Source: a virus. Taken from it: 64,000 bases of DNA. Made by a program: the position numbers and the translations under genes. The DNA lies in IMG/VR virus record IMGVR_UViG_3300023238_000005, positions 52,041 to 116,040 of that record, one strand, 5' to 3'. Below the pieces are notes generated by a model. It ran no database searches. It was given only the letters and a program-made list of their open reading frames with translations, and was not told where the DNA came from. Positions 3,288-61,650 of this stretch are shown here, one piece after another; the stretch's first letter is position 1, and the number at the start of each line of letters is the position of its first letter.

Positions 3288-3351
3288 ACCAATGCCCTTT
3301 CATTTGATAGGAGCGCCCTCACGCTCTACAAATGTATTTATCAGATAGTTG

Positions 3352-5016
3352 TTAGACTGTGGCGTTTGGATCGTTAACTTGCTTGGTTTGATCTGCTGGT
3401 GCATCGTCAGGCTCAGCTGGGTTTGTAGGCGCTGTTTTGTTCTTTTCTACTTGAGCTGCATCTAGTTTTTCAACATTAGCAAGCTCTTTTAACAGAGGAC
3501 CCATTTCAACTAGGTTACGAATCGCATCAGCACTGGTTCTTGAACTCAATTGTACTAATACTGCTTTGCCGTCTAATTTTTCAGCGCCGTCTTTGCCAAG
3601 AGTTCTAACTGCTTCTTCACCTTTTAGTTCGCCAATAATACTAATTCTGTGAGTTGAAAGACCTTGATCATTTGTTACTCTTAGGTCATAAAGTTCTAAT
3701 GCTGATAATAGTCTAGCATCAAACGCTAGTTCTTTGTATGCTACTTTTGCACTAGGCGAAAGAATAACCATTGTTACACCTTCTTCGCCTCTTGTTGCAT
3801 GAAAGTTAATAGCATCATACACATGTTGTACAAGTTTGAATTCTTTGCTTGTGTCGTCACCAGCAGTGTATGCTTGTACCTGCTTGGCCATTTCTGAATA
3901 CAGTTTAGCAAACGGACCGTTGCTATAGTTGTGATCTTTGTAGTCTTCTTCGTTGCTGCTTTTAAATCCAAAATCTTGTTTCATAGAATCTGGAAGTCTA
4001 AACTTAAATATGCTTTCAAAGAAATCACTTACAGTTTCCCACTCTCCGCCGCTTATTTGTCCAAACTGTTTTACAGTTCCAGCTTTTAAACTTAGTAGTC
4101 TTTGTGGCTTACCATCATACTCGAGTTTCAAGTCAACTTTAGTTGAGCTCTGTTGTGTAGCATCGCCGCCGTCGGAGATAATACTAATTTGATTGTTGCC
4201 TTTTAGTTCTAGTTTGGCTTTATCAACTGCTGTGGATGCTCTTTTATTTTTGTTTGCATATTCAACAGCATCTGTCACTTGCTTTTGCATGCTGTCCAAT
4301 GTTTCCTTTTTAACTTCAAACTCTGTGAAAAGTCGAAGATCTCCGACAGCACCCATTGGATCTTCTTCGTCTATCCATAGTTTTAATGGTTTCATCGATG
4401 CACTATTAAGTGTTAGAGTAAATTTATAGTTGTCATCGACAACTCCAACAGTTTGATAATCAGTTGTGCCTTCAGCAATGCCTGATGCTACTACATCTTT
4501 TAGAACTCGTATAACATCGTTTTTAGAAATGTTCCTGCCGCCTACTGCAAATTTTGCAGAAAGTGCAGAACCCAACACTGCTTCGGCAATATCGCCGAGA
4601 TTAGGGACCAATGAGCCTTTTACTGCTTCATTCTTTTTCAGTTTATTAAGTGGAACTTCATCGCCGTCAATAAAGAATTTAGTATTTTTTATAAAGTCTG
4701 GATAATTTGATAACGCATATGTTTCCCAATCATCAGTGGACATTTCCTTACCGTTAACAGTAATCTTGTCTACCTTGCCAGCTTTTTCAGGAGCTTTGCC
4801 TGCCGAGCCTTTTGCACCAATCTCGGCGTAGACAAAATCTTTGGCATTTCTAATACTCTTTGCTGTAGCAATTACATATTTGGTAGGCTTGCCTGTGCCG
4901 CCAGCTTTTTTATCACCAGACGCTAACCAATTTTTTCCACTCATCATTGAGGCTTCTGCCAAGTCAGTCTTTGCTTTAACTTTTGATTCTACAATTTTAA
5001 TATCTGAAAAACGCAT
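3352..5016 (-). CDS. Large hypothetical, probably virion-packaged protein; possible PD-(D/E)xK-like nuclease fold
   Basis: 554 aa; N-terminal MRFSDIKIVE motif; GDIAE...TKVDL...LSLK pattern; late promoter TATAAATA at ~5042. Confidence 0.6.
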   Translation of the reverse strand: MRFSDIKIVESKVKAKTDLAEASMMSGKNWLASGDKKAGGTGKPTKYVIATAKSIRNAKDFVYAEIGAKGSAGKAPEKAGKVDKITVNGKEMSTDDWETYALSNYPDFIKNTKFFIDGDEVPLNKLKKNEAVKGSLVPNLGDIAEAVLGSALSAKFAVGGRNISKNDVIRVLKDVVASGIAEGTTDYQTVGVVDDNYKFTLTLNSASMKPLKLWIDEEDPMGAVGDLRLFTEFEVKKETLDSMQKQVTDAVEYANKNKRASTAVDKAKLELKGNNQISIISDGGDATQQSSTKVDLKLEYDGKPQRLLSLKAGTVKQFGQISGGEWETVSDFFESIFKFRLPDSMKQDFGFKSSNEEDYKDHNYSNGPFAKLYSEMAKQVQAYTAGDDTSKEFKLVQHVYDAINFHATRGEEGVTMVILSPSAKVAYKELAFDARLLSALELYDLRVTNDQGLSTHRISIIGELKGEEAVRTLGKDGAEKLDGKAVLVQLSSRTSADAIRNLVEMGPLLKELANVEKLDAAQVEKNKTAPTNPAEPDDAPADQTKQVNDPNATV

Positions 5017-6633: not shown

Positions 6634-7107
6634 TTACTTGCTGTCTGTGTCAACTGCTTCGTGTACTGCGCCTGAGTAATCTTTAATAGCGATTTTCTTA
6701 GGTTTTAGTGCATCTGGCAGATTTCTTTGTAAGTGTATATTGAGCATGCCTAGTTCAAGACCGGCCCCTTCAACTTCAACGTGATCAGCTAATGTAAACT
6801 CTCTTCTGAAGTTGCGTCCGCCAATACCTTTGTGCAGGTAGTTAACTGATTCATCTCCTTTTGGAGCCGTACCTTCAATCTTTAATTGATTACCATCTGT
6901 AGTAATATCAAGATTGTCCATACCAAAGCCAGCAACAGCTAATGAGATCATATACTCATCATCGTTTATTTGTGCAATGTTGTATGGGGGATATCCGTTT
7001 CCGTTTGGACTATTTGCAAAGCCTCTTTCGAGTTCATTAAATAGTCTGTCAAAGCCAATAGTAGCTTTGTGGAAGTGTGGTAGATTTATTGTGTCAATTC
7101 TTGTCAT
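6634..7107 (-). CDS. ibpA: Small heat shock protein (Hsp20/IbpA family)
   Basis: IGFDRLF, YPPYNI, LAVAGF, YLHKGIGGRNFRREFTLA, GMLNIHL. Confidence 0.93.
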   Translation of the reverse strand: MTRIDTINLPHFHKATIGFDRLFNELERGFANSPNGNGYPPYNIAQINDDEYMISLAVAGFGMDNLDITTDGNQLKIEGTAPKGDESVNYLHKGIGGRNFRREFTLADHVEVEGAGLELGMLNIHLQRNLPDALKPKKIAIKDYSGAVHEAVDTDSK

Positions 7108-7112
7108 TTTGT

Positions 7113-16386: not shown

Positions 16387-16420
16387 AAAAAAAGAGTGCT
16401 ACATTGCTGTAACACTCTTC
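16387..16420 (-). terminator. Intrinsic terminator after tmRNA
   Basis: AAGAGTGTTACA...TGTAGCACTCTT followed by T run on minus strand. Confidence 0.75.
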
Positions 16421-16424
16421 CTGC

Positions 16425-16670
16425 TATTTTTGGTAACAAAGTATAACTACTTCGTAGAAGCCCTTAGGCTGCTAATGCGAAATTTTCATTTGCGTTTATA
16501 GTTTTCGTTCGCGATAACCGTGCTTACATCCGGGTAACTCCACTTCCTCTCTTACGTGTATCGATACCTGCTTCACCCCCATCAACTATACACTCAGTAA
16601 ATGTATACTTGGTGGAGGTGCCGGGTGCCGCCCCCGGGTCTACTCCGTCGTTGCTAAAGTTTCAACGTTA
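16425..16670 (-). ncRNA. ssrA: Circularly permuted two-piece tmRNA; tag ANENFALAA
   Basis: Acceptor piece GACCCGGGGGCGGCACCCGGCACCTCCACCA ends 16610; intervening hairpin; coding piece starts GGGGGTGAA at 16580; tag frame 16493-16464; outer ends approximate. Confidence 0.92.
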
Positions 16671-16689
16671 CATACTATTTATAACACGT

Positions 16690-16995
16690 TTAACTAAACA
16701 TGTCAAGTTCTTTTGATGCTTTTGTCTTTGTCTTCTTAGCTTCAGGACGAATTGGTTCTAGCCATGTATCAGCAATGTATGCTTTAGGTGATGGTCCCAA
16801 TTGTATATCTATGTCTTCGCCTTGTATCCACCAATAATGATCATGTATCATACAAGTGCAAGTCATGCTATGTGCTTCAAACTGTTCGCCAGCTTCAAAC
16901 TTACCAATGTACTCGACTACCTTTACAGCTCGTCCAATGTTACTCGGATTCACTGAATGTATGATGCGGGCAAAGTCGCCCTGCACACACTTCAT
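16690..16995 (-). CDS. Hypothetical protein
   Basis: 101 aa ORF, ATGA-coupled. Confidence 0.7.
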   Translation of the reverse strand: MKCVQGDFARIIHSVNPSNIGRAVKVVEYIGKFEAGEQFEAHSMTCTCMIHDHYWWIQGEDIDIQLGPSPKAYIADTWLEPIRPEAKKTKTKASKELDMFS

Positions 16996-50662: not shown

Positions 50663-50732
50663 TAGGTTGACAAACACTAGGTTCGGTGCTATACTAGTTA
50701 TAGTAATTAGGCAAACACACTAGGAGCATTAC

Positions 50733-51116
50733 ATGGGCAAAGAACTCAAGTCTAAATTAATGCAGCCCTACACCGAGATTGATCGTGTGACAGCTGATGT
50801 GAATCCGCTACTAAGTGCAGGAGTGTTGATGGCAAGTGCCCTGCGCATATACAAGACTGTGTTAACACCACAAGAGTTCGCTGCCATAACTGAATTCATT
50901 CGAGACCAAACAGATGAGATCGAACCAATTGAGCCTGTGCCCACGAGGGTTGGAGAGCGTTGGTTCGACTCTTCAGAAGGCGTGATGTACGAGTATGTCA
51001 ATGATGGTACAGACGGTGCATGGTTAGACATTGGTGCGGGCAGCAGCAGCAACATGTCTAGCGTGTATGAGTATAGTAGACCTGCAAGAAAATGCAATAG
51101 AAAAATTGTAAATTAG
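50733..51116 (+). CDS. Early protein, apparently chimeric with a tail-fibre-like fragment
   Basis: C-terminal VGERWFDSSEGVMYEYVNDGTDGAWLDI. Confidence 0.6.
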   Translation: MGKELKSKLMQPYTEIDRVTADVNPLLSAGVLMASALRIYKTVLTPQEFAAITEFIRDQTDEIEPIEPVPTRVGERWFDSSEGVMYEYVNDGTDGAWLDIGAGSSSNMSSVYEYSRPARKCNRKIVN

Positions 51117-51180
51117 GACTTGACAGTATAGCATTTAGGTGCTATACTGCATGTATAAACTAAAACAAAGGGCAAACAAA

Positions 51181-51435
51181 ATGGGCTTACTAGCTAATCA
51201 TCTTAAAATGGCATACTGCGACTTCATTGCTGACCGTGTGCGCAAAGCACTAGTCAATGACCAATGGACCATGCAGGATGGCGAAAACTTAATTGACGAC
51301 ATCGGCAACGTGCAAATGGACCTGCACCCAACTGAGGGTTACCTTCTAAGTACTGCCAAGTCAATCACTGTACATGACGTCAACGGCAAAGCTTACATTG
51401 TTAGCATACAGGAAGCGCCAATACTAGACAAATAA
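51181..51435 (+). CDS. Early hypothetical protein
   Basis: Start MGLLANH after AAAGGGCA. Confidence 0.75.
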   Translation: MGLLANHLKMAYCDFIADRVRKALVNDQWTMQDGENLIDDIGNVQMDLHPTEGYLLSTAKSITVHDVNGKAYIVSIQEAPILDK

Positions 51436-51500
51436 AAGGTTGACAACATAGCACTTCGGTGCTATACTATATGTATAGTAACAAACAAAGGGCAATCATT

Positions 51501-51863
51501 ATGTGGAACACTGTAAAGACTTTCAAAGTAGGTAACTTCGATGTATCAGTTGCGTGGGCTTATGAAGATATGCCAATCCGCGATTGCTTCGAAGAAACAG
51601 AAGAAGAGTTTGCTGCGATGCAGGCTCGCTGCGATGACTACACTGACACTCACTACCAGCTGCGGGTTTTAGCCGAGTATGATGATGTTGAGATGGGCAG
51701 CGCATATATAGGCTCGTGCTATGCTGCGGGAATGGATCCAGCACAAGACATCAATGATGGTGTTGGCGGATACTTAGAGGACTTTGTAAGCGAAGCAGTC
51801 AGCGAAGCACAAGACGAAGCGGTTGCAATGATTGATAGATTAAAGGCAGATTTCTTAAATTAG
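51501..51863 (+). CDS. Early acidic hypothetical protein
   Basis: Start MWNTVK after AAAGGGCA. Confidence 0.75.
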   Translation: MWNTVKTFKVGNFDVSVAWAYEDMPIRDCFEETEEEFAAMQARCDDYTDTHYQLRVLAEYDDVEMGSAYIGSCYAAGMDPAQDINDGVGGYLEDFVSEAVSEAQDEAVAMIDRLKADFLN

Positions 51864-51930
51864 GGGTTGACAAACCAGCACACTGGTGCTATACTATATG
51901 TATAAGTTAATAAAGCAAAGGGCAAATAAA

Positions 51931-52311
51931 ATGGGTACTAGAAGCGCAATAGGTTACAAACTTCCGAATGGTAAGATCCGTGCAAAGTATTGTCACTGGA
52001 ATGGCTATGTTGATGGCGGCGTTGGTCAAACTCTACAAGAGAGCTACCAAGCTGCGTTTAAAATTGGTCGTATGGTTGAGCTAGGTGACATGAGTACACT
52101 AGCTGCTGAGATTGACGACTGCGTGTTTTACGGTCGTGACAAAGGCGAAACTAACGTAGACGCACAAGACTACGATGACATTATTGTCTTCGCCTCCATC
52201 TTCGAAGGCTGCGAATACTTTTATGTATGGAACGGCAACGAGTGGTTGGTTAGTGAAGGCAACTTGGTGTTTAATCGTGTAGAGGACTTGCTGGAAGTAT
52301 TAGCTGCCTAA
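51931..52311 (+). CDS. Early phage protein (MGTRS...YCHWNGY motif)
   Basis: Start after AAAGGGCA; ends LAA. Confidence 0.8.
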   Translation: MGTRSAIGYKLPNGKIRAKYCHWNGYVDGGVGQTLQESYQAAFKIGRMVELGDMSTLAAEIDDCVFYGRDKGETNVDAQDYDDIIVFASIFEGCEYFYVWNGNEWLVSEGNLVFNRVEDLLEVLAA

Positions 52312-52384
52312 ACAAATAGGTTGACAGTATGGCATTTAGGTGCTATACTATATGTATAAGTTAATAAAGCAGAGGGCAAATTAT

Positions 52385-52594
52385 ATGACAGACTTTAGAG
52401 ATCAAGCAATCGAGCTAGTTGAAGACGGCAACTTAGATCCGATGATGGCGCTGACTATGTGTCTCAAGTGGATGAGCAATGACGAAGTTGGCGAGATGCT
52501 AGACGCTAACGAGTTGAGTGAACGCTTCCAGGAAGAGGATGACGGACAACCAGACGAAGCACAGGAGTGGGCCGACTTTGACCCAGACTGTTAA
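52385..52594 (+). CDS. Early acidic protein (QPDEAQEWADFDPDC tail)
   Basis: Start MTDFRD after GAGGGCA. Confidence 0.75.
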   Translation: MTDFRDQAIELVEDGNLDPMMALTMCLKWMSNDEVGEMLDANELSERFQEEDDGQPDEAQEWADFDPDC

Positions 52595-52744
52595 TGGCCG
52601 GCGCTGACAACACCAAGATAGTATACGTCATAGTGGCACTAGAAGTCCTACGTGACGCAGACATTCAAGACATCATGAGCGAATGTGATTACTCGTTTGA
52701 ACACTCAGACATCGTTGAAACAGAACTTATGGGAGAGACTGATC

Positions 52745-52843
52745 ATGCCTAATTGGTGCAACAACTCAATCACAATCACTGGTCCAGCAGAGAAGATCCT
52801 GGACATATGGTCTAAGGCACAAGATCCTGATTCAGGTTTGTAA
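52745..52843 (+). pseudogene. Truncated MPNWCxN (YubB/DUF1281-like) gene
   Basis: MPNWCNNSITITGP...GL stop after 32 aa. Confidence 0.6.
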
Positions 52844-52945
52844 GCTATTGATATCATTGGGAATCTTTTTTGCAGATAATGGTTGACAACCATGCAATAC
52901 CGTGTTATAATATATTATATTAACAATTAGAGCAAGGAGCATTGC

Positions 52946-53242
52946 ATGGGATACTACACTTACACTGAAGCACCAATAGGCAACTTCATTGAGAAGGAGC
53001 ATGGTCACAACTTTGAATACTCGCTGAACGAGGAGCAGGATGACTACTCCAAGAGCATTGTGGAGAACTATCCACACAAGGTATGGGTTGGCTCGCACCA
53101 GATAGGCGGTGACAGTGGATGGCGTTATGCGAACGTGAAGAAGACTGTGGCTTACATCATCGTAGCCGAAGATGATGGCGGCGGTCCTGTAGTTGAGCGT
53201 TGGTTCCTAAAGAAACATGATGAATATGTAATTAGGGGTTGA
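52946..53242 (+). CDS. Early hypothetical protein
   Basis: AAGGAG RBS; stop codon lies inside next -35 box. Confidence 0.75.
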   Translation: MGYYTYTEAPIGNFIEKEHGHNFEYSLNEEQDDYSKSIVENYPHKVWVGSHQIGGDSGWRYANVKKTVAYIIVAEDDGGGPVVERWFLKKHDEYVIRG

Positions 53243-53298
53243 CAAATCCGTATAGTGTGCTATACTGTATATAACAGTTAAACAAAAGGGCAAAGAAT

Positions 53299-53592
53299 AT
53301 GACACTAGCTATAACAAGCAACCACCAAGAACGTCCAGTAATAAGCTGGCACGACCTAACACCCAAGCAGCAGAGCGAGTTCAACTACGATAGTGCTGAG
53401 GAATCGGACTTCGTTATCTACAAGAACTGGCCGTACGACATAGCTGAATTCATGGCAGTACGGCACGACACTAACAGCGACCTAGCCTATCAAGCATGGG
53501 ACGGGTATAGTGGAGATTCCTTCTTCTCAGGCGTACTAATCAAGTTCGCTCCTGACTACGATACCGTAATCATGGGCAGGTACACAAGCTAA
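53299..53592 (+). CDS. Early hypothetical protein
   Basis: AAAGGGCA RBS. Confidence 0.75.
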   Translation: MTLAITSNHQERPVISWHDLTPKQQSEFNYDSAEESDFVIYKNWPYDIAEFMAVRHDTNSDLAYQAWDGYSGDSFFSGVLIKFAPDYDTVIMGRYTS

Positions 53593-53738
53593 ATCGTTAC
53601 CCGAGATCAACGAAGCACTCTACGACTATAGGAAGTAAGATTATCTATAAGTAACGGGCTAATCGTCCTCCCGATCTAGGACGATACTATCTGAGGGAAA
53701 ACCAGAGAGTTTGCAGATAATTAACTAAGGGGAAGACC

Positions 53739-53927
53739 ATGACATATCAAGAAATGATGCTTAGAGACTTAAAGAATGGCAAGACAGTATCACCACTAAT
53801 GGCGCTAAGGAATTACGGGTGTCTAAGGCTTGGTGATGTAGCCTTCCAGCTTAGAAAGAAGGGCTATAAGGTAGTTACTACAATGGTTGAGAGGAATGGC
53901 AAGAGATACGGGGTGTATTCGCTATGA
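53739..53927 (+). CDS. Small winged-HTH protein
   Basis: SPLMALRNYGCLRLGDVAFQLRKKGY. Confidence 0.7.
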   Translation: MTYQEMMLRDLKNGKTVSPLMALRNYGCLRLGDVAFQLRKKGYKVVTTMVERNGKRYGVYSL

Positions 53928-54340
53928 GCGAGAGTAAAGTGAAAATACAACACCGAGACAGAGTTGGGATGCAGGAAGCTACCTACATACTAACCCCTGA
54001 AACAAAAAATCCATGGCTGCTATTTGAAGGCGATGCAGACTATCTAGCAGTAAAACAACTCCAAGCCACCATAGCAGAAATGGGGAACGTAATAGGAAAC
54101 GATCAAGCCCAGATAAAGTTTTATAGGGATGCCGTAGCAGACAAAGACGCCGAGATAGCAGAGCTTCGAGAAGAGGCCGAGATATCTGCTGCAACTATTG
54201 AAATGCAGGCCGTCATACTAACTGATTCGGTCAATGCGATTAGAGGCGAACCGCCTGAGCTTACTTTGTGGAGCCATCACGATTTAGCTGACTTGATAAA
54301 GAACGTACTAGTCATTAACCCTATAGGTGATAACAAATGA
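53924..54340 (+). CDS. Coiled-coil hypothetical protein
   Basis: ATGA-coupled. Confidence 0.55.
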   Translation: MSESKVKIQHRDRVGMQEATYILTPETKNPWLLFEGDADYLAVKQLQATIAEMGNVIGNDQAQIKFYRDAVADKDAEIAELREEAEISAATIEMQAVILTDSVNAIRGEPPELTLWSHHDLADLIKNVLVINPIGDNK

Positions 54341-54645
54341 ATTATTTTGAAAGCTTGAGCTTAGTTATTATTTACATAAGCGGCACTTTTTGCGTGATGT
54401 GGGGAATTGCTTGGCTTATCGAGCGCACATATAAAAAGATTCAGATATTGGCCGGGCTGATTGAGTTTCTGATATATCGAAAAAAGATATGTGCGTGATC
54501 AGGTCCATGGCGCTGTTACAGACAACAGTTTTGATGTTCCATTTTATATCTAAATGAGAGGTTGACAAAGGCAAAAAAGGTGTTATACTGTATATAACAG
54601 TTAGGAAACATCCTGGCTGACACTTAAACTGAAAAGGTAATTTAA

Positions 54646-54894
54646 ATGAGCTTTACAACTATTAAGACTGACCAAAAGACTTTCCTAGAAACATACCTAC
54701 GTGGTACTGGCAAGACTCTAACTGCTGCTGATGCGAACGCTCGCTTTGGTATCAAGAACCTTCCTGCACGTATGTCCGAGCTTCGAGCTGCTGGCTTGAA
54801 CGTTAAGACTGATGTTGCTACAACTGGCAAGACTCGCTATGCTGTGACAGCACGTGATGTTGCTGGAAGTCGCGCTAAGATGTTCGTTTCATAA
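54646..54894 (+). CDS. Small winged-HTH DNA-binding protein
   Basis: LTAADANARFGIKNLPARMSELRAAG; own promoter and terminator. Confidence 0.75.
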   Translation: MSFTTIKTDQKTFLETYLRGTGKTLTAADANARFGIKNLPARMSELRAAGLNVKTDVATTGKTRYAVTARDVAGSRAKMFVS

Positions 54895-54913
54895 GAAGCT
54901 GAACTAGCGAAAG

Positions 54914-54941
54914 AAAAGTGTCGGAAACGGCACTTTTTTTT
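54914..54941 (+). terminator. Intrinsic terminator
   Basis: AAAAGTGTCG GAAA CGGCACTTTT plus T run. Confidence 0.85.
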
Positions 54942-55010
54942 GGATTAGGGGTTGACAACTGCGTTAAAGATGCTATACTATATGTATAGTTAAGCAAAAG
55001 GGCAAACACA

Positions 55011-55208
55011 ATGAATAAGACATTAACAACTGGACTAGTACTAGCAGGCACAATAGCAATAGCAATTGCAGCCAACAGTGCTTTATCAATGCCAGATGCG
55101 TACTTCAGCTACGCCACCAACGAATGTGTTAAGGTTGTGAACTACACAGATGAGATCTTCAGCTGTGATAACCTTCCTTCCAAGTTTAACCATGTATGGG
55201 TACAATAA
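55011..55208 (+). CDS. Early membrane/secreted small protein
   Basis: AAAGGGCA RBS; N-terminal hydrophobic helix. Confidence 0.7.
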   Translation: MNKTLTTGLVLAGTIAIAIAANSALSMPDAYFSYATNECVKVVNYTDEIFSCDNLPSKFNHVWVQ

Positions 55209-55286
55209 TATGGACTACCAAACACTGCAAACCGTTATCGAAGATTTAGATCGTGTGCTATCGCTGCGCGATGGAATTGCGGCACA

Positions 55287-55718
55287 GTGCCGTATATTCC
55301 GCCACCAGTTGTTCCAAAGCCAGAGCATAGAAAAACAAAAGTAGAATTTCCATACGAAAGTTCTGCAAAGCAGCCAAAAAAGCTACTGGCAATAGACTTT
55401 CATTTTTACGGCGACACAAATCCCTATATTGCTAGTACGCCAGAAAGCGCAAAAAAACAGATAGATTTTTATAAAAGTTTTAATTTCAGTACACAGATAA
55501 AATATATAAAACACTGTCTTGAAAATAAAGTTTGGCTCGCAAAAGATGGTGTAGTTCATCATGTAACTGCAATGAGTTCGGCACATTTGCATAACACGAT
55601 CAACTATATAGAAAGACGCATAGCGAACCGTGAAACTTGCGTTTTTGGACTAGGTCCAGATTGGCTACCAATTTTAATAAAGGAGACTGAAAGACGGTTA
55701 GAAAAAGAAGGTATTTAA
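55287..55718 (+). CDS. Hypothetical protein (5' end possibly truncated)
   Basis: AT-rich ORF; MSSAHLHNTINY motif. Confidence 0.5.
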   Translation: MPYIPPPVVPKPEHRKTKVEFPYESSAKQPKKLLAIDFHFYGDTNPYIASTPESAKKQIDFYKSFNFSTQIKYIKHCLENKVWLAKDGVVHHVTAMSSAHLHNTINYIERRIANRETCVFGLGPDWLPILIKETERRLEKEGI

Positions 55719-55749
55719 AATTAAATTAATAAACTCAGGAGTTTTAAAA

Positions 55750-56328
55750 ATGACAGAATTTAATCACGATTTGGAATTGGACCATATTGATATGGTAAAC
55801 CTTCTTGCAAAAGATGGCGGCGAAATAATCTTAGGATTAAATCAAGAAACCGCCCACTGTTTGCACATGGCAATCGGTATAGTCGGTGAAGTTGCAGAGC
55901 TTACAGAGGCTTTGCTAAACCATGATCGTATAAATACTGTTGAAGAGTTAGGCGACACTCTTTTTTATATGGCCGGTTTACAAGAAGCATATGGAATTGA
56001 AATTCCGCATTGCATTTTTGTTCTTCGGTTTAGTGGAAATACGCGAATGGACTGCATTCTTCAAATGTCTATAGCTGCTGGAGATTTGCTAGACGAAGTT
56101 AAAAAACAAGCGATTTATTGCAAAGAAGTTGATATGCAAATCGTCAAAGATAGAATGGCGATTTTAAAAGCTTGCATGGAAGTCGTTTTTAAAATGGAAG
56201 AAATAACCCGCGATGAATGTTTGTTACATGTTCGCGCAAAACTTTTAACTGGTAAAAATGCCAGATATAAATCTGGTTACACTGACGAGGCAGCAAGAGA
56301 ACGCGCCGATAAAAACGGCGAACAATAA
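55750..56328 (+). CDS. MazG-like nucleotide pyrophosphohydrolase (tandem domains)
   Basis: GIVGEVAEL...EELGDTLFY; second degenerate copy AGDLLDEVKK. Confidence 0.8.
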   Translation: MTEFNHDLELDHIDMVNLLAKDGGEIILGLNQETAHCLHMAIGIVGEVAELTEALLNHDRINTVEELGDTLFYMAGLQEAYGIEIPHCIFVLRFSGNTRMDCILQMSIAAGDLLDEVKKQAIYCKEVDMQIVKDRMAILKACMEVVFKMEEITRDECLLHVRAKLLTGKNARYKSGYTDEAARERADKNGEQ

Positions 56329-56373
56329 ACCGAAACATAAACAAAAACTTTATCAAAAACGGAATGTAAAAAA

Positions 56374-56466
56374 ATGGCTATATTAATTCAGACAGTGTTG
56401 GAAGCGGTTGAAGATCACGGCATAAAAATACTCGTACACGGACCAGCAGGAGCGCCGGACTCATAA
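56374..56466 (+). pseudogene. N-terminal fragment of an AAA (Sak4/AAA_24-like) ATPase cut inside Walker A
   Basis: MAILIQT...IKILVHGPAGA then runs into tRNA sequence and stops. Confidence 0.6.
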
Positions 56467-56504
56467 TCCGTAGGTTCCGAGTTCGAGTCTCGGAGGGCCC
56501 ACCA
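56450..56504 (+). pseudogene. 5'-truncated tRNA with CAT anticodon (Ile2/Met)
   Basis: CGGA-CTCATAA-TCCG anticodon arm, CCGAG-TTCGAGT-CTCGG T arm, AGGGCCCACCA; no matching 5' acceptor strand upstream. Confidence 0.8.
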
Positions 56505-56509
56505 AATAT

Positions 56510-56586
56510 GTCTCCTTAGCTCAGCTGGATAGAGCAACGGCCTTCTAAGCCGTAGGTCACAGGTTCGAATCCTGTAGGGGACACCA
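56510..56586 (+). tRNA. tRNA-Arg(TCT)
   Basis: Full cloverleaf, ACGGC-CTTCTAA-GCCGT, encoded CCA. Confidence 0.96.
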
Positions 56587-56661
56587 ACTTTTCGGTTGAC
56601 AAGATAGCATTGTGGTGCTATAGTATATGTATAAGTTAAACAAGTAGAGGAGCACTATACA

Positions 56662-56892
56662 ATGTCAACACAATTACGCAACGTACCAGACTGCACATTC
56701 CAAAACGAATTGACTCAGACAATAAATTGGGATACTGGTTATTTTGAAGCTAAAAGAGACCATAGTCAAATTGTTAAAGATTTCCATAATAATATTAAAA
56801 GTATGAAACTCGAAAGAGCTACTGAAATAATGAATAGAGATCACAATTCTATGACCAAGAAGTATTTTGGACCTAAGTATATTAAGTATTAG
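56662..56892 (+). CDS. Early hypothetical protein
   Basis: GAGGAG RBS; AT-rich 3' part. Confidence 0.55.
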   Translation: MSTQLRNVPDCTFQNELTQTINWDTGYFEAKRDHSQIVKDFHNNIKSMKLERATEIMNRDHNSMTKKYFGPKYIKY

Positions 56893-56934
56893 TAATTTTA
56901 GATATTCAAACTGGTATGATAGGAAAATTAAATT

Positions 56935-57180
56935 ATGAGTTTAGCAAAGAAATTGTTAAATAAAGTAGAAGAAAGTAATATACATGAAGCTGATATGACT
57001 AAATCATATGATGGATTTCACTTGCTTAATTTTAAGACTGGTAAAATTACCAATCATAAGTATATTAAAGGTATTAAAAGTACCGAAGTTGAAAACGAAG
57101 CTATAGATAAAATGAAGAAGGAGACTGGTGATAGTAATTTCGGAGTTCATGGTTTCATTAAGAAAGGTGAGTGGGTTTAA
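56935..57180 (+). CDS. Hypothetical protein
   Basis: AT-rich ORF with AGGA RBS. Confidence 0.55.
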   Translation: MSLAKKLLNKVEESNIHEADMTKSYDGFHLLNFKTGKITNHKYIKGIKSTEVENEAIDKMKKETGDSNFGVHGFIKKGEWV

Positions 57181-57507
57181 TCTACAAAAACTTAGATCCG
57201 AAGACAAAACCTATCATACGACTAAGTCGTATGATGGGTTAATAATTATTGGAATTTGGGTAAGCAAGGTGTAAGTAAAGATATGATTGAAGAAGGTAAA
57301 GTATCTAAAGGCGGAGTAAATAGAAATCCTCCTACATCAGAGAGGCCAGGTCCTCCTGCTAGACAACGTTCTAAAAATAATATTGATTGGAAAGAAGTTA
57401 TGGATATGATCTTTGAGGTCATACCAGAGAGACACTGTAATTAGGAGTTGACAACTAGCATTTAGATGTTATAATAGTATTATAAACAAACAAAAGGGCA
57501 AGCACAC

Positions 57508-57792
57508 ATGAAAAACTTATTTGAAACTCCCCAAGCACAGAAGCAACTTGCAGCCGTAGGGCGCCAGATGCAAGACTACTCCGAAGACTTTGGTAAGATA
57601 CATGGCCTCAAGCAATTGAAAGAAGGTGGTCTACGTATACTCAATGAGCTAAGCCATGTAGGCGGGATGCTTATCCGTTATGGTGTGACTTTTGGTACCC
57701 AGCTCAAAGACTTTACAGATGGTGATTACCAATTGATTGCAGAGTTTATGAGGGGAACTTACTCAAACGATTACTTGAAGGAGTTGAAGTAA
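57508..57792 (+). CDS. Early hypothetical protein
   Basis: AAAGGGCA RBS. Confidence 0.75.
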   Translation: MKNLFETPQAQKQLAAVGRQMQDYSEDFGKIHGLKQLKEGGLRILNELSHVGGMLIRYGVTFGTQLKDFTDGDYQLIAEFMRGTYSNDYLKELK

Positions 57793-57965
57793 TGGCGTTC
57801 TGTGTTAGCTGTCATACATTGGAGAAGCAGTTCTTTGCTCCTCGATGCAGTGAGTGTAATGAAGAGACCAGGTTCCTGATGCAGTGTCTTGGTAGTCTAG
57901 TATATACCACAGCCTATGTTGGCGGCATTATACTGTTTGGTTATTTTATATTATCTGTTAATTAG
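57792..57965 (+). CDS. Small Zn-ribbon membrane protein
   Basis: CVSC...CSEC plus C-terminal TM helix; TAATG coupling. Confidence 0.6.
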   Translation: MAFCVSCHTLEKQFFAPRCSECNEETRFLMQCLGSLVYTTAYVGGIILFGYFILSVN

Positions 57966-58029
57966 GGGTTGACAATCCTGTAATAGATGCTATACTATAT
58001 GTATAAGTTAATAAAGCAGAGGGCAAATT

Positions 58030-58299
58030 ATGTATACACTAGAACTTTATAAGACGGATGCAAGAACCAAGTCAGGCGAACGCCTAGTAGAGAAGCGTGA
58101 CGGTTGTGGCGCACTAGGATCACCTAAGCTTGCTTGTGAGCTGCACTATGCTAAGATGTATCCTGCACCCAAGTGGCGTACAGAGATTCACGAAACAATG
58201 GTTACATCTCGTAACATGATGAACGGCAAAGAGTTTAAGGAGCGTTACGACACTCCCTACTATTGTTCACCCAGTTCCGAAACCTACTGGAGTATGTAA
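58030..58299 (+). CDS. Early protein, SPSSETYWS family paralog 1
   Basis: GAGGGCA RBS; NMM.GKE...TP...SPSSETYWS. Confidence 0.78.
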   Translation: MYTLELYKTDARTKSGERLVEKRDGCGALGSPKLACELHYAKMYPAPKWRTEIHETMVTSRNMMNGKEFKERYDTPYYCSPSSETYWSM

Positions 58300-58545
58300 A
58301 TGAGCTATGACCCAACTCCTTTAGTTTCACCAGAGTTTGATTGCAGTCTAGTAGAAGAAGGCCGCAGGGAGAGTGTGGATGCAACGGACCTAATCCTAAA
58401 GGACGGTTGCATGGACCACCCGGGAGACATCATTGCTAACATCCTGCACTGGTGCGATCACTATAGCGAAGACTTTGAAGACATCCTGCGCCGTGGCAGG
58501 GACTATCATAAAGATGAACTAGATGGGTTGAAAATTAGGGGTTGA
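58300..58545 (+). CDS. Early hypothetical protein
   Basis: Coupled; stop inside next -35 box. Confidence 0.7.
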   Translation: MSYDPTPLVSPEFDCSLVEEGRRESVDATDLILKDGCMDHPGDIIANILHWCDHYSEDFEDILRRGRDYHKDELDGLKIRG

Positions 58546-58605
58546 CAGGTTAGCTGTTAGGTGTTATAATAGTATTACAAATTAAGTAAACACAAAGGGC
58601 ACGAC

Positions 58606-58920
58606 ATGGGCTACATCATTTACCGCAAAGACACCACAGCTATTCCTGCGCAATTGCGTGACAAGATATACAAGACTGTACCAGCAGCAAAGGCAGCACT
58701 GACTCGCTTCAACACTGCGTGGGCTCAGACACGGGGCAAGCTGGGCAACGAACCCGACGCACCTCAGTTCACAATGGCTATTGCCGAGTCAGAATACTAT
58801 GCTAAGAACATTGAGAAGACTGTGACACGAGTCAACATGATGAGCGGGAAAGAGTATACTGAGTCAGTGAACACGCCGCTGTTCATGTCTCCCAGCTCAG
58901 AAACCTACTGGAGCCAGTAA
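58606..58920 (+). CDS. Early protein, SPSSETYWS family paralog 2
   Basis: AAAGGGCA RBS; same C-terminal motif. Confidence 0.78.
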   Translation: MGYIIYRKDTTAIPAQLRDKIYKTVPAAKAALTRFNTAWAQTRGKLGNEPDAPQFTMAIAESEYYAKNIEKTVTRVNMMSGKEYTESVNTPLFMSPSSETYWSQ

Positions 58921-59002
58921 GAAAAAGGTTGACAAGTGCTAGTGTGTGTGCTATACTGTATATAACAGTTAGATAAACGTTAAACAAAGGACAGGGCAAA
59001 AC

Positions 59003-60004
59003 ATGCAGAACATTAAGATAGTAAATGGTACTTACAGACTACGTGGCAAAGAAACAGATATGAGCGGTATGATATTTCCAATGGCCAAAGAGTTTACTCT
59101 AGGCACTAGTGGTGGAGCTGTTACAGTTGACAGTACTACTGTTATTGGATTACCAAATCGTAACATTAAGATCAAATGTAATAACCCAGAGGATTACGAG
59201 CTGGTTGGAGATGATGTCAAAACAGAAGTCGTTGAAGAGTCAGACGCTGAAATTGTAGAGCGCATCAGAGAACGATTTGACATGCTCAAAGACATGACCA
59301 AAGCCGTCAAAAAGGGAAGCGTCAGAGCAATGATTGTTTCCGGTCCTCCGGGTGTAGGCAAGAGCCACGGTGTTGAGGAAGTGTTGGATCGTTATGCAAC
59401 TATGGAGATGATGGGAGCAGGCAAGACACACGAAGTCATCAAAGGTGCTATGTCGCCAATTGGTCTCTACTGCAAGTTGTACAAGATGGCAGACAAAGGT
59501 AAGGTAGTTGTGTTTGATGACTGTGACAGCATCTTCCAGGATGACCTAAGCTTGAACATATTGAAGGCAGCACTAGACAGCAAGAAGAATCGTTGGATCC
59601 ATTGGAACACTGATTCATTCAAGTTGCGCAACGAAGGTGTGCCAGACAAGTTTAAGTTTGAAGCTAGTGCAATCTTTATCACAAACATGAAGTTTGATAA
59701 AGTCAAAGGCAAGTTGCGTGAGCACTTGGAAGCATTAGAGTCACGCTGTCACTACATGGATCTAACTATCGATACCGACAAAGAGAAAGTATTACGTATA
59801 AAGCAAGTCATCTCAGATGGCATGTTGGATGATCGTAAGTTGTCAGAAGATGTTAAAGTTGACATCATGGACTTTGTTGAAATGAATATGAGTAAGCTAC
59901 GCGAACTGTCACTTCGTACAGTACTAAAGGTAGCAGACTTAGCTGAAGCTTTCCCAACTAAGTGGGAAGCGATGGCGGAAAATACCGTTATGCGTCGAGC
60001 ATAA
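59003..60004 (+). CDS. AAA+ ATPase
   Basis: Walker A GPPGVGKS, Walker B VVVFDDCD, sensor FITN, arginine finger ALESR. Confidence 0.9.
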   Translation: MQNIKIVNGTYRLRGKETDMSGMIFPMAKEFTLGTSGGAVTVDSTTVIGLPNRNIKIKCNNPEDYELVGDDVKTEVVEESDAEIVERIRERFDMLKDMTKAVKKGSVRAMIVSGPPGVGKSHGVEEVLDRYATMEMMGAGKTHEVIKGAMSPIGLYCKLYKMADKGKVVVFDDCDSIFQDDLSLNILKAALDSKKNRWIHWNTDSFKLRNEGVPDKFKFEASAIFITNMKFDKVKGKLREHLEALESRCHYMDLTIDTDKEKVLRIKQVISDGMLDDRKLSEDVKVDIMDFVEMNMSKLRELSLRTVLKVADLAEAFPTKWEAMAENTVMRRA

Positions 60005-60019
60005 CGCTCCGCTTCATGT

Positions 60020-60256
60020 GTAAGGGCAGCAGCGCACCCTGTGGTGTTGCCCAACAAGGACAGACTAGATTGTGCCCTCGATCGAAGCTGTCCGAACAGA
60101 GCTAGTAAGGATGTGCCCTCGTCCAAGCTAGTTCATAAGAAGCCGAAGTAGCCATTAAGAACTGTGCGGTAGTTGGTAGTAAAAGCTTGTGCCCTCACGC
60201 TTTGCTACCTTTTTAGAAGCCCTGCTCAGTATGCCCTTACTGAGTGGGGTTTTTTC
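60020..60256 (+). ncRNA. Candidate multi-hairpin sRNA with four UGCCCU loops, ending in intrinsic terminator
   Basis: TGTGCCCTC at 60071, 60112, 60188 and TGCCCT at 60232, each enclosed by an inverted repeat. Confidence 0.75.
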
Positions 60257-60343
60257 TTTTCTAAATACCAAATGAGTGGTTGACAACCCAGCAATACCAT
60301 GCTATAATATATACATATTAAACAATAAAGCAAAGGGCGAATA

Positions 60344-60538
60344 ATGATGATCTACGCAGAACTACTTGACATCCTAAAGAACATGACTCCTGATCAACTC
60401 GCGGACACTGTACAGGCATACAGTGGTGACATTGATGATACTATCAAGGTGATCGGAGTCTCAGAGAACACAGACCAAGAGATGGGCGAAAGTATCCCAA
60501 ACTTTAGTACTACACAAATATTCTTGATCTTAGAGTAA
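60344..60538 (+). CDS. Early hypothetical protein
   Basis: AAAGGGCG RBS. Confidence 0.7.
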   Translation: MMIYAELLDILKNMTPDQLADTVQAYSGDIDDTIKVIGVSENTDQEMGESIPNFSTTQIFLILE

Positions 60539-60607
60539 ATTAGGGGTTGACAAGATGACACTTCGGTGCTATAATGTATATACAAACTAGCAAAAAGGGC
60601 AAACAAT

Positions 60608-60916
60608 ATGAATTATCTAAGAGTTGACGTTTACCGTAACGCAGGCATTGATTGTAGCGCACGTGGTGTTACCAGCGACGAATCAAATATGATGGTTGTT
60701 CCTTGTGTGAGCGGACCTATCACTGCTGAACAAGCTGAGCTCAATGAGTATGTGATCCTAGTTCCAGGTAAGGCAGGCAACAGGATGCATGTTAAACCAG
60801 AAGGCGTTGGACGACATACTATGTTCGGTGGTAACTTTGTTTACTCAAGTGACAGCCGCTTTGGTGAAACCTACGGTAGCAACCCAGTTCATGTACATGA
60901 CAGAATTGAATATTAG
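60608..60916 (+). CDS. Early phage protein (MFGGNFVYSSDSRF...HDRIE)
   Basis: AAAGGGCA RBS. Confidence 0.78.
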   Translation: MNYLRVDVYRNAGIDCSARGVTSDESNMMVVPCVSGPITAEQAELNEYVILVPGKAGNRMHVKPEGVGRHTMFGGNFVYSSDSRFGETYGSNPVHVHDRIEY

Positions 60917-61146
60917 GGGTTGACAGAGTAGCATCCAGGTGTTATACTGTATGTACAAAATGAGAAAAGGAAGAGAAAATGAAAAATATTGAGCAATGGT
61001 TGTATGTGAGGGAGTTAACCCAGAAAGATAAGCGTGGTCGACCGATGCATCTCCAGCAAAATAACAAAACTGGTGAATACCGATCAGTATGCGCATAAGA
61101 GCGTATACTGTTAGTATAAGTTAAATAAACCATAAGGGCAAACGAC

Positions 61147-61581
61147 ATGGCATATGTAAGCAAGCAGGACAAAGCAGAACTAGCACCGGGCATCAAAGCT
61201 GTTCTTAAGAAGTATAACATGAAGGGCAGCATTTCAGTTAGACATTACTCAACTCTAGTAGTTAAGATCACACAAGGCGCAATTGACTTCAGTGATTACT
61301 TCACACATGGTGAAGGTTACATTCAAGTGAATGAGTACTGGATCGATCAACACTATTCACGCATTCATAAGGCGTTCTTAAACGAACTGTTGGCTGCTAT
61401 GAAAGGTACCAACTACTATAACAATGATGATTCGATGACTGACTACTTTGATCGTAGCCACTACACTAACATCTACATCGGTGCGTGGGATAAGCCATAT
61501 GCATTCGTCAAAGGCAGCATTAATGTTGATGCAAGCCTTAGAGCAGACCCAAACAAAGAAGCATACCTAGTAGCGCAATAA
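61147..61581 (+). CDS. Early phage protein (DSMTDYF motif)
   Basis: AAGGGCA RBS. Confidence 0.8.
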   Translation: MAYVSKQDKAELAPGIKAVLKKYNMKGSISVRHYSTLVVKITQGAIDFSDYFTHGEGYIQVNEYWIDQHYSRIHKAFLNELLAAMKGTNYYNNDDSMTDYFDRSHYTNIYIGAWDKPYAFVKGSINVDASLRADPNKEAYLVAQ

Positions 61582-61650
61582 GAGGTTGACAGTATGGCAC
61601 TTCGGTGTTATACTGTATACAGTTAAACAATAAAGCAAAGAGGGCAAACT

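Follow-up and report, generated by a model that had tools for sequence, protein, structure and literature searches.

Behind one of the early genes of an uncultured giant phage lies a non-coding stretch that folds into consecutive hairpins and repeats one C-rich motif in their loops. What does this array do? The earlier note on this DNA had suggested a single multivalent RNA whose loops are complementary to a private ribosome-binding motif of early genes, and the question is whether loop and motif are indeed partners. The locus belongs to a 116,040-bp IMG/VR virus contig (G+C 40%, CheckV completeness estimate 32%), of which we analysed the final 64 kb (64,000 nucleotides, hereafter the window; coordinates refer to it unless another sequence is named). 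One related contig has a completeness rating of 100% at a length of 357,559 bp, so the phages of this group are giant phages. The plus strand between 50.6 and 62.2 kb of the window is a block of small genes with 18 near-perfect early promoters (TGnTTGACA-16/17-TATAAT/TATACT, plus strand, 50667-61614). This promoter-rich block is a typical early region.

The promoter scan places one of these early sigma-70-type promoters (TTGACA-17-TATACT, 58929-58957, plus strand) at the head of the transcript that carries the array. The gene on this transcript (59003-60004, plus strand) encodes a 333-aa AAA ATPase, which annotation searches assign to Pfam AAA families and to phrog_1250, a group of unknown function. 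Its start codon (ATG 59003) is conserved across the alignment of relatives. Cultured homologues of the ATPase are distant only (<45% identity), the homologue in PA5oct has no array downstream, and a blastn search of the array region against cultured phages gave no match. Behind the gene, the early ATPase transcript ends in a non-coding segment (60005-60262, plus strand), and the array is the 3' UTR of the ATPase gene in every relative examined.

The array region folds with -102.3 kcal/mol, compared with -74.3 +/- 4.6 for dinucleotide shuffles (z -6.1), and none of 200 shuffles equals it. The hairpins described in the earlier note at 60058-60093, 60099-60134 and 60175-60209, as well as the terminator hairpin, were all recovered by folding, with unrelated stems, and the UGCCCU copies that it had placed in the loops (60073, 60114, 60190 and 60232) are unpaired in the minimum-energy fold in four of four cases. 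The first hairpin (60058-60093) has its UGCCCU loop at 60073-60078. The second (60099-60134) has an inner stem GGAUG/CGUCC around the loop at 60114-60119, and this inner hairpin is also found in nine close relatives. The third (60175-60209, UGCCCU at 60190-60195) is of the sequence type GCCCUCACGCU(U/C)UGC, a type common to the relatives. The fourth (60215-60262, plus strand, found by folding and by the terminator scan) is an intrinsic terminator with a 17-bp stem and the loop UGCCCU at 60232-60237, which reads UGCCCUU, followed by a U run; the G+C-rich hairpin and U run expected of such terminators lie within 60215-60254. Two smaller plus-strand hairpins precede these four. One (59997-60009, GAGC/GCUC) holds the stop codon within its loop, and relatives L003 and L014 carry GCCCUC in the same loop. 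The other, at 60024-60052 and found in the window only, buries a tag-like sequence, as the GGGCA of AAGGGCA (60022-60028) is paired with UUGCCC.

The direction of transcription follows from the end of the array. A U-rich run after the last hairpin is retained in nearly all relatives. Transcription of the minus strand, on which the loops would read GAGGGCA and form a sponge that mimics Shine-Dalgarno (SD) sequences, was considered and rejected, as the conserved U run lies only on the plus-strand side. No minus-strand promoter-like sites of 10/12 or better were found flanking the array. The promoter scan also detected no strong promoter inside the end of the ATPase gene or proper to the array, so early transcripts would supply the RNA as their 3' portion. 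That the array is made from an early transcript which itself carries the ribosome-binding motif, as had been suggested, agrees with the AGGGCA of the ATPase gene at 58993-58998.

This AGGGCA is one of 17 copies on the plus strand of the window, 15 of which lie between 51169 and 61641. A pattern count agrees exactly with the list in the earlier note: AGGGCA stands 4-7 nt 5' of the ATG in 13 early genes, and AGGGCG precedes one more. Besides that of the ATPase gene (ATG 59003), these plus-strand ribosome-binding site (RBS) tags lie at 51169-51174 (ATG 51181), 51489-51494 (ATG 51501), 51919-51924 (ATG 51931), 52373-52378 (GAGGGCA, ATG 52385), 53287-53292 (ATG 53299), 54999-55004 (ATG 55011), 57495-57500 (ATG 57508), 58020-58025 (GAGGGCA, ATG 58030), 58596-58601 (ATG 58606), 60596-60601 (ATG 60608), 61135-61140 (ATG 61147) and 61641-61646 (GAGGGCA, ATG 61651), with the AGGGCG variant at 60334-60339 (ATG 60344). 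The AGGGCG gene and 12 of the 13 AGGGCA-tagged genes are located no more than about 50 nt downstream of a near-perfect early promoter; the gene at 61147 has no promoter directly upstream, the closest being at 60920.

The tag is largely confined to this class of genes. By rough gene calls on the whole 116-kb contig, GGGC-type sites precede 12 of 28 early-promoter-proximal genes versus 5 of the remaining 171. Genes inside early operons, as well as late and metabolic genes, mostly use GGAG, GAGG or AGGA sites, as previously noted for most of the late and metabolic genes. Three more tagged starts are present on the opposite strand elsewhere in the contig, two of them after an early-type promoter. 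The genome-wide count that had been suggested as a check gives the same picture in the complete 357,559-bp relative, where RAGGGCA-N2-9-ATG occurs 25 times versus twice for a reversed-pattern control. Fifteen of these 25 tagged starts are on the plus strand at 6.4-23.3 kb, and the sole UGCCCUC cluster of that genome (three within 80 nt) is found inside this tagged block, at 19.8 kb.

The occurrence of the same 7-mer in both orientations within one genome region could mean that a DNA-binding regulator recognizes GAGGGCA/TGCCCTC as double-stranded DNA, reading it either way at the early promoters and in the array. We give this reading hardly any credence. In the early leaders of the relatives, the spacing from tag to ATG has a standard deviation of 2.1 nt, versus 6.1 nt for the spacing from -10 box to tag; the distance is fixed to the start codon and not to the -10 box, so the tag is a feature of the RBS and not of the promoter. 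Moreover, each copy in the array is flanked by a different inverted repeat, an arrangement that is sensible only for a single strand.

A protein search with the ATPase identified 15 close relatives (68-83% ATPase identity). In all 15, the ATPase stop codon is followed by the array, which closes with a terminator ahead of the next early promoter; six more distant relatives (62-69% ATPase identity) carry the array as well. In one of the relatives (L006) an inserted reverse-strand ORF (2190-2810) separates the array from the ATPase gene; GTGATGCGGAGAG is duplicated at both ends of the insert, the array is intact, and the insert looks like a homing-endonuclease insertion. The window and these 21 loci, with ATPase identities of 62-83%, are referred to here as clade A. 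Each locus has a GGGC tag on 1-14 leaders and no GGAGCG, and 2-4 copies of GCCCUY and no UCGCUCC after the ATPase gene. The early leaders of clade A read GAGGGCA (consensus GAGGGCAA in 70 of 149 distinct leaders) and the array loops read (U/A/C)GCCCUC, on 3-6 hairpins per array with stems that differ among relatives.

The placement of the motif in loops is far from random. Minimum-energy folds of 13 distinct arrays have GCCCU in hairpin loops in 41 of 47 cases, versus a mean of 2.3 and a maximum of 7 in a control that keeps the motif positions and shuffles the flanks. Compensatory changes affect 19 of the 35 pairs in the alignment folds. A further hairpin alignment, named A4, covers the five-pair stem that closes the 6-nt loop: each of its three outer pairs takes three or four pair types, and roughly half of the hairpins differ on both sides at three of the five pairs. 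The hairpins of A4 were chosen for pairing, so its figure of 100% paired is circular, and the evidence lies in the diversity of pair types alone. The two bases on either side of the loop (UG...CG) are conserved. Finer matching within clade A (AAGGGCA with UGCCCUU, GAGGGCU with AGCCCUC) is inconsistent across phages, and the pairing of AAGGGCA with UGCCCUU at the terminator loop of the window is suggestive of co-variation at this finer level.

Fixed loops on variable stems are open to other interpretations. The last hairpin is a textbook intrinsic terminator, and stacked 3' hairpins are generally known to protect mRNAs. The region could consequently be a 3' stabilizer with a terminator and nothing else, in which the C-rich loops avoid spurious ribosome binding or are simply favorable loops. 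Neither role requires that one invariant 6-7 nt loop be repeated 3-5 times while the stems drift, and the other terminators of the window (57208 and 62223) are without the loop motif. The hairpins could also be bound by an RNA-binding protein of the phage or its host and serve as a sponge, a recruiter or an antiterminator, as in CsrB/RsmZ or nut/put; the complementarity to the RBS would then be incidental. Several hairpins with variable stems and a single loop motif are the architecture of protein-sponge RNAs, and the conserved bases around the loop fit a protein site. CsrB and RsmZ, which have many hairpins and one loop motif, copy the mRNA motif GGA in their loops and titrate a protein; the phage loops contain no GGA, and they complement the mRNA motif rather than copy it. 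Apart from the ATPase of unknown function, the array has no conserved RNA-binding gene linked to it. Base pairing between loop and tag, on the other hand, predicts that the two change together, and a second clade allows this prediction to be compared with the sequences.

A profile search with the ATPase listed 80 further, more distant loci out of roughly 580 ATPase-linked loci. Among the matches listed, about 38 loci (ATPase identity 48-65%) form clade B, which has a GGAGCG tag on 1-7 leaders and 1-2 copies of UCGCUCC after the ATPase gene, sometimes placed after one further gene. The exceptions are one locus with a GGGC tag on a single leader and a few loci with short flanks and no UCGCUCC. 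The clade B tag is GGAGCGAA, with the leader consensus AGGAGCGAA in 69 of 130 leaders. The motif behind the ATPase gene forms CCG-AUUCGCUCC-CGG hairpins inside variable outer stems, just before the terminator, and lies wholly in hairpin loops in 25 of 44 distinct copies versus 1.2 with shuffled flanks. Low-GC relatives that lack such promoter cassettes (ATPase identity 49-57%) have neither tag and neither motif.

The clade B loop, AUUCGCUCC, is the complement of the clade B tag, GGAGCGAA(U). There are accordingly two matched pairs, UGCCCUC with GAGGGCA in clade A and AUUCGCUCC with GGAGCGAA in clade B, and no locus clearly mixing both codes was found among the clade A and clade B loci listed. 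A third tag and loop code was not found among the listed loci with GGAGCA or GGAGUUU leaders, and L064, L080 and L059, whose early sites are of the GGAGCA type, have no array in their locus sequence. The arrays of both clades contain, near their start or middle, a hairpin without the tag complement, AAGCAGCC-NNNN-AGAGCUG(Y) (L002 ~7085-7110, L016 ~7055-7080, L055 ~4810-4835, also L057 and L070), which is degenerate in the window (60140-60172). This common hairpin indicates that the arrays of clades A and B are homologous.

Loop and tag have thus changed together, including three (clade A) or four (clade B) positions beyond the SD core. Such a joint change outside the SD core is a prediction of base pairing and not of a protein site, a stabilizer or a DNA site. 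A protein would have no reason to keep its site the exact complement of the RBS tag while both change between clades, and a protein sponge is quite unlikely because of this co-variation. Likewise, a stabilizer does not require the loop to switch to the complement of the new RBS tag in the sister clade, and we consider that a purely protective and terminating role is very improbable. Pairing of the array loops with the early RBS tags is therefore the supported reading, judging from the sequence comparisons, and the single multivalent RNA addressed to a private early RBS, as well as the variable stems and fixed loops changing with the tag that the earlier note had anticipated in related phages, are borne out at this level. 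As far as these sequences go, loop and tag co-varied essentially in a single evolutionary switch that separates the two clades, rather than in many independent events.

The element is not restricted to a few loci. Scanning IMG/VR for exact matches to the two inner hairpins gave 74 and at least 120 stretches; by our estimate of the collection size roughly 100 chance matches are expected for such patterns, and these raw counts were set aside. Matching promoters and tags are present at about 25 of 72 checked loci for pattern A and at 48 of 74 for pattern B. The element is found in dozens of uncultured aquatic giant-phage contigs and is a family trait, not a curiosity of a single genome.

The predicted energies distinguish the two pairs. 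The cognate loop-tag duplex has -14.2 kcal/mol in clade A and -13.9 kcal/mol in clade B, compared with about -6 kcal/mol for non-cognate duplexes, and a generic bacterial 16S tail, taken in place of that of the host, pairs with the tags at -4.4 to -8.3 kcal/mol. Most tags of the window are AAGGGCA, which form 6 bp with three of the loops (A-C mismatch, -10.6 kcal/mol); UGCCCUU, in the terminator, is the only loop with which they reach 7 bp. The 6-nt loop is closed by a G-C pair, which has to open for full-length pairing. Across the contig of the window, crude loop-to-start-region energies have a median of -11.4 for early-promoter-proximal genes versus -6.8 for the rest (p about 2e-6), with false positives, as 29 of 171 non-early genes score at -10 or below.

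We consider it probable that the array gives rise to a multivalent, 3' UTR-derived anti-RBS RNA that represses the tagged early mRNAs. Transcription from the strong early promoters would run through the ATPase gene and stop at the last hairpin. The 3' segment of ~250 nt, possibly released by processing, would display its four UGCCCU(C/U) loops, which would pair with the private tag (G/A)AGGGCA, the SD region of the promoter-proximal early genes. The loop-tag duplex of 6-7 bp is predicted to be stronger than the pairing of the tag with the 16S tail, so the RBS would be occluded. With growing amounts of the structured RNA, the tagged early mRNAs would most likely be repressed in their translation, and genes with ordinary GGAG or AGGA sites would be spared. 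A stable RNA species, its action in trans, and the outcome, repression serving as the negative-feedback timer of early shut-off that the earlier note proposed, are inferred.

The arrangement of the transcription units bears on the question of cis or trans action. No plus-strand terminator-like site is present between 57240 and 60215, so transcripts from 57448, 57969 and 58542, all upstream of the ATPase promoter, as well as those from 58929, are expected to terminate in the array. On them lie four tags (57495, 58020, 58596 and 58993), equal in number to the four loops, and the array has no promoter of its own. The 3' array might accordingly fold back on the tagged sites of its own multi-gene transcript, with no free RNA, and provide each transcript with a built-in translation window or with protection from decay. 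As the whole explanation, we regard strictly cis pairing as unlikely. Of the 14 tags in the window, nine belong to other transcription units, upstream of the terminator at 57208 or downstream of that at 60254, as do most of the 25 in the complete relative, and a role in cis only leaves unexplained why these tags are retained and why the loops co-vary with them. With most tags in other transcription units, action in trans is needed. An additional fold-back in cis, involving the four tags at 57495-58993 on transcripts that end in the four-loop array, is possible. The array and its targets share the same early promoters, and a delay between expression and repression by the anti-RBS RNA therefore requires differential stability, which we assume.

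Tags tend to lie within small hairpin loops of otherwise weakly folded leaders in 48 of 122 cases versus 11 with shuffled flanks, and 10 of 179 clade A early leaders have two tandem tags (TTAGGGCAAAGGGCA; for example L014 2824-2890 and L015 5528-5590). Both features fit contacts of the array loops with single strands or with other loops. Some clade A leaders retain an upstream TTAGGGCAA although the SD proper is an ordinary AGGA or GAGGA.

Several known RNAs share parts of this design. The cuckoo/CcsR (RSs0680) sRNAs of Alphaproteobacteria have 2-4 hairpins with CCUCCUCCC loops, share a transcript with an upstream ORF and end in a terminator (PMC4615179; PMC8034643). The earlier comparison with cuckoo RNAs is accurate as to architecture (PMC4615179): adjacent hairpins, variable stems and one anti-SD-like loop motif in each. 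However, the phage loops read UGCCCUC or AUUCGCUCC and not the CCUCCUCCC of cuckoo, and they have a private extension of 3-4 nt that matches, and co-varies with, the early tag of the phage itself. The phage array is located in a virus contig behind a gene for a 333-aa AAA ATPase, whereas cuckoo is chromosomal and lies behind a small DUF1127 gene. An Rfam family with another function, which would have spoken against the proposal, was not found: searches with the window, L002 and L055 arrays at gathering and permissive thresholds gave chance-level matches only, the top ones below threshold being NsiR1, with 20.8 of the 39 bits needed, and suhB/mmgR, with 21.7 of 41, and no covariance model of cuckoo/CcsR or of any other family matches the array.

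RNAIII of Staphylococcus and related sRNAs with C-rich loops pair through UCCC-type loops with the SD of several mRNAs and repress their translation (PMC4615179). They are likewise multivalent, with C-rich hairpin loops complementary to SD regions, but sequence and organism are unrelated, and the phage targets are set by a dedicated tag, those of RNAIII by the ordinary SD. The nearest phage precedent is the c4 antisense RNA of phages P1 and P7, in which complementary sequences, probably in loops, pair around the RBS and block translation, and matched RNA-target pairs in related phages lead to heteroimmunity (PMC12197685). The phage origin, the complementarity of loop and RBS, and the matched pairs in related phages are common to both. 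In contrast to the ~14-25 tagged early genes of a lytic-type giant phage, c4 controls one operon (antirepressor) in temperate phages; the genomic context also differs, and no Rfam family matches the array region at gathering or lower scores. In phage T4, the RegB endoribonuclease recognizes a special early RBS signature (GGAG with an A-rich tail) and selectively inactivates early mRNAs (PMC1702504). This is a functional analogy only, as RegB is a protein nuclease aided by ribosomal protein S1, and the reader here would be an RNA.

The array shares with anti-RBS sRNAs a seed that is single-stranded in the predicted fold and complementary to the target RBS, and seed and target co-vary in the relatives as two matched codes. 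By these sequence features it belongs with the anti-Shine-Dalgarno hairpin RNAs, as a variant carried by phages whose address is private and co-evolves. No published description of a phage anti-RBS hairpin array was found in our literature searches. If the proposal is true, a single phage RNA would address a whole temporal gene class via a private extension of the SD, an RNA-based counterpart of the protein-based early shut-off of T4 (RegB, RegA), and phages would be able to give ribosome-binding sites an orthogonal address. A further gain would be two natural, mutually non-cognate tag and anti-tag pairs, each with about -14 kcal/mol, that are possibly useful as translation switches. A further and speculative idea, which we hold to be doubtful, is that GAGGGCA/UGCCCUC and GGAGCGAA/AUUCGCUCC are orthogonal translation codes: one RNA would switch off the whole early regulon and, by analogy with c4 of P1/P7, would also silence a superinfecting phage with the same code, and the divergence of the codes would mark competing lineages.

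Some further features of these loci were observed. In relatives, the tRNA cluster is immediately followed by another structured non-coding RNA, which displays GCCCUC in hairpin loops and has AUCCAUUAUAACA, or a sequence close to it, at its end (L007 3790-3900, L008 ~230-400, L012 ~3900-4030, L015 4290-4440). The window lacks this RNA at the corresponding position, where a promoter follows tRNA-Arg at 56596. A plus-strand hairpin at 3290-3330 of the window (GAGCG-CCCUCA-CGCUC, with UGCCCUU nearby) is array-like, lies among minus-strand genes and reads GAGGGCG and AAGGGCA on the minus strand; it folds no better than shuffles and was rejected as an array-like element. Most early promoters have a palindrome over the -10 box and the transcription start, TATACTGTATATAACAGTTA or TATACTATATGTATAGTTA (window 51440-61640; relatives L002-L022), which could be a repressor operator or a hairpin at the mRNA 5' end.

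The window also encodes a permuted, two-piece tmRNA of the alpha type (16395-16710, minus strand, Rfam 85.7-107.5 bits), which hints at an alphaproteobacterial host. Immediately 5' of tRNA-Arg, the stretch at 56446-56505 resembles the 3' part of a tRNA, with the anticodon loop CUCAUAA, a T arm and a CCA end. ARAGORN, run on the window, does not call this stretch, which may be a truncated tRNA-Met/Ile.
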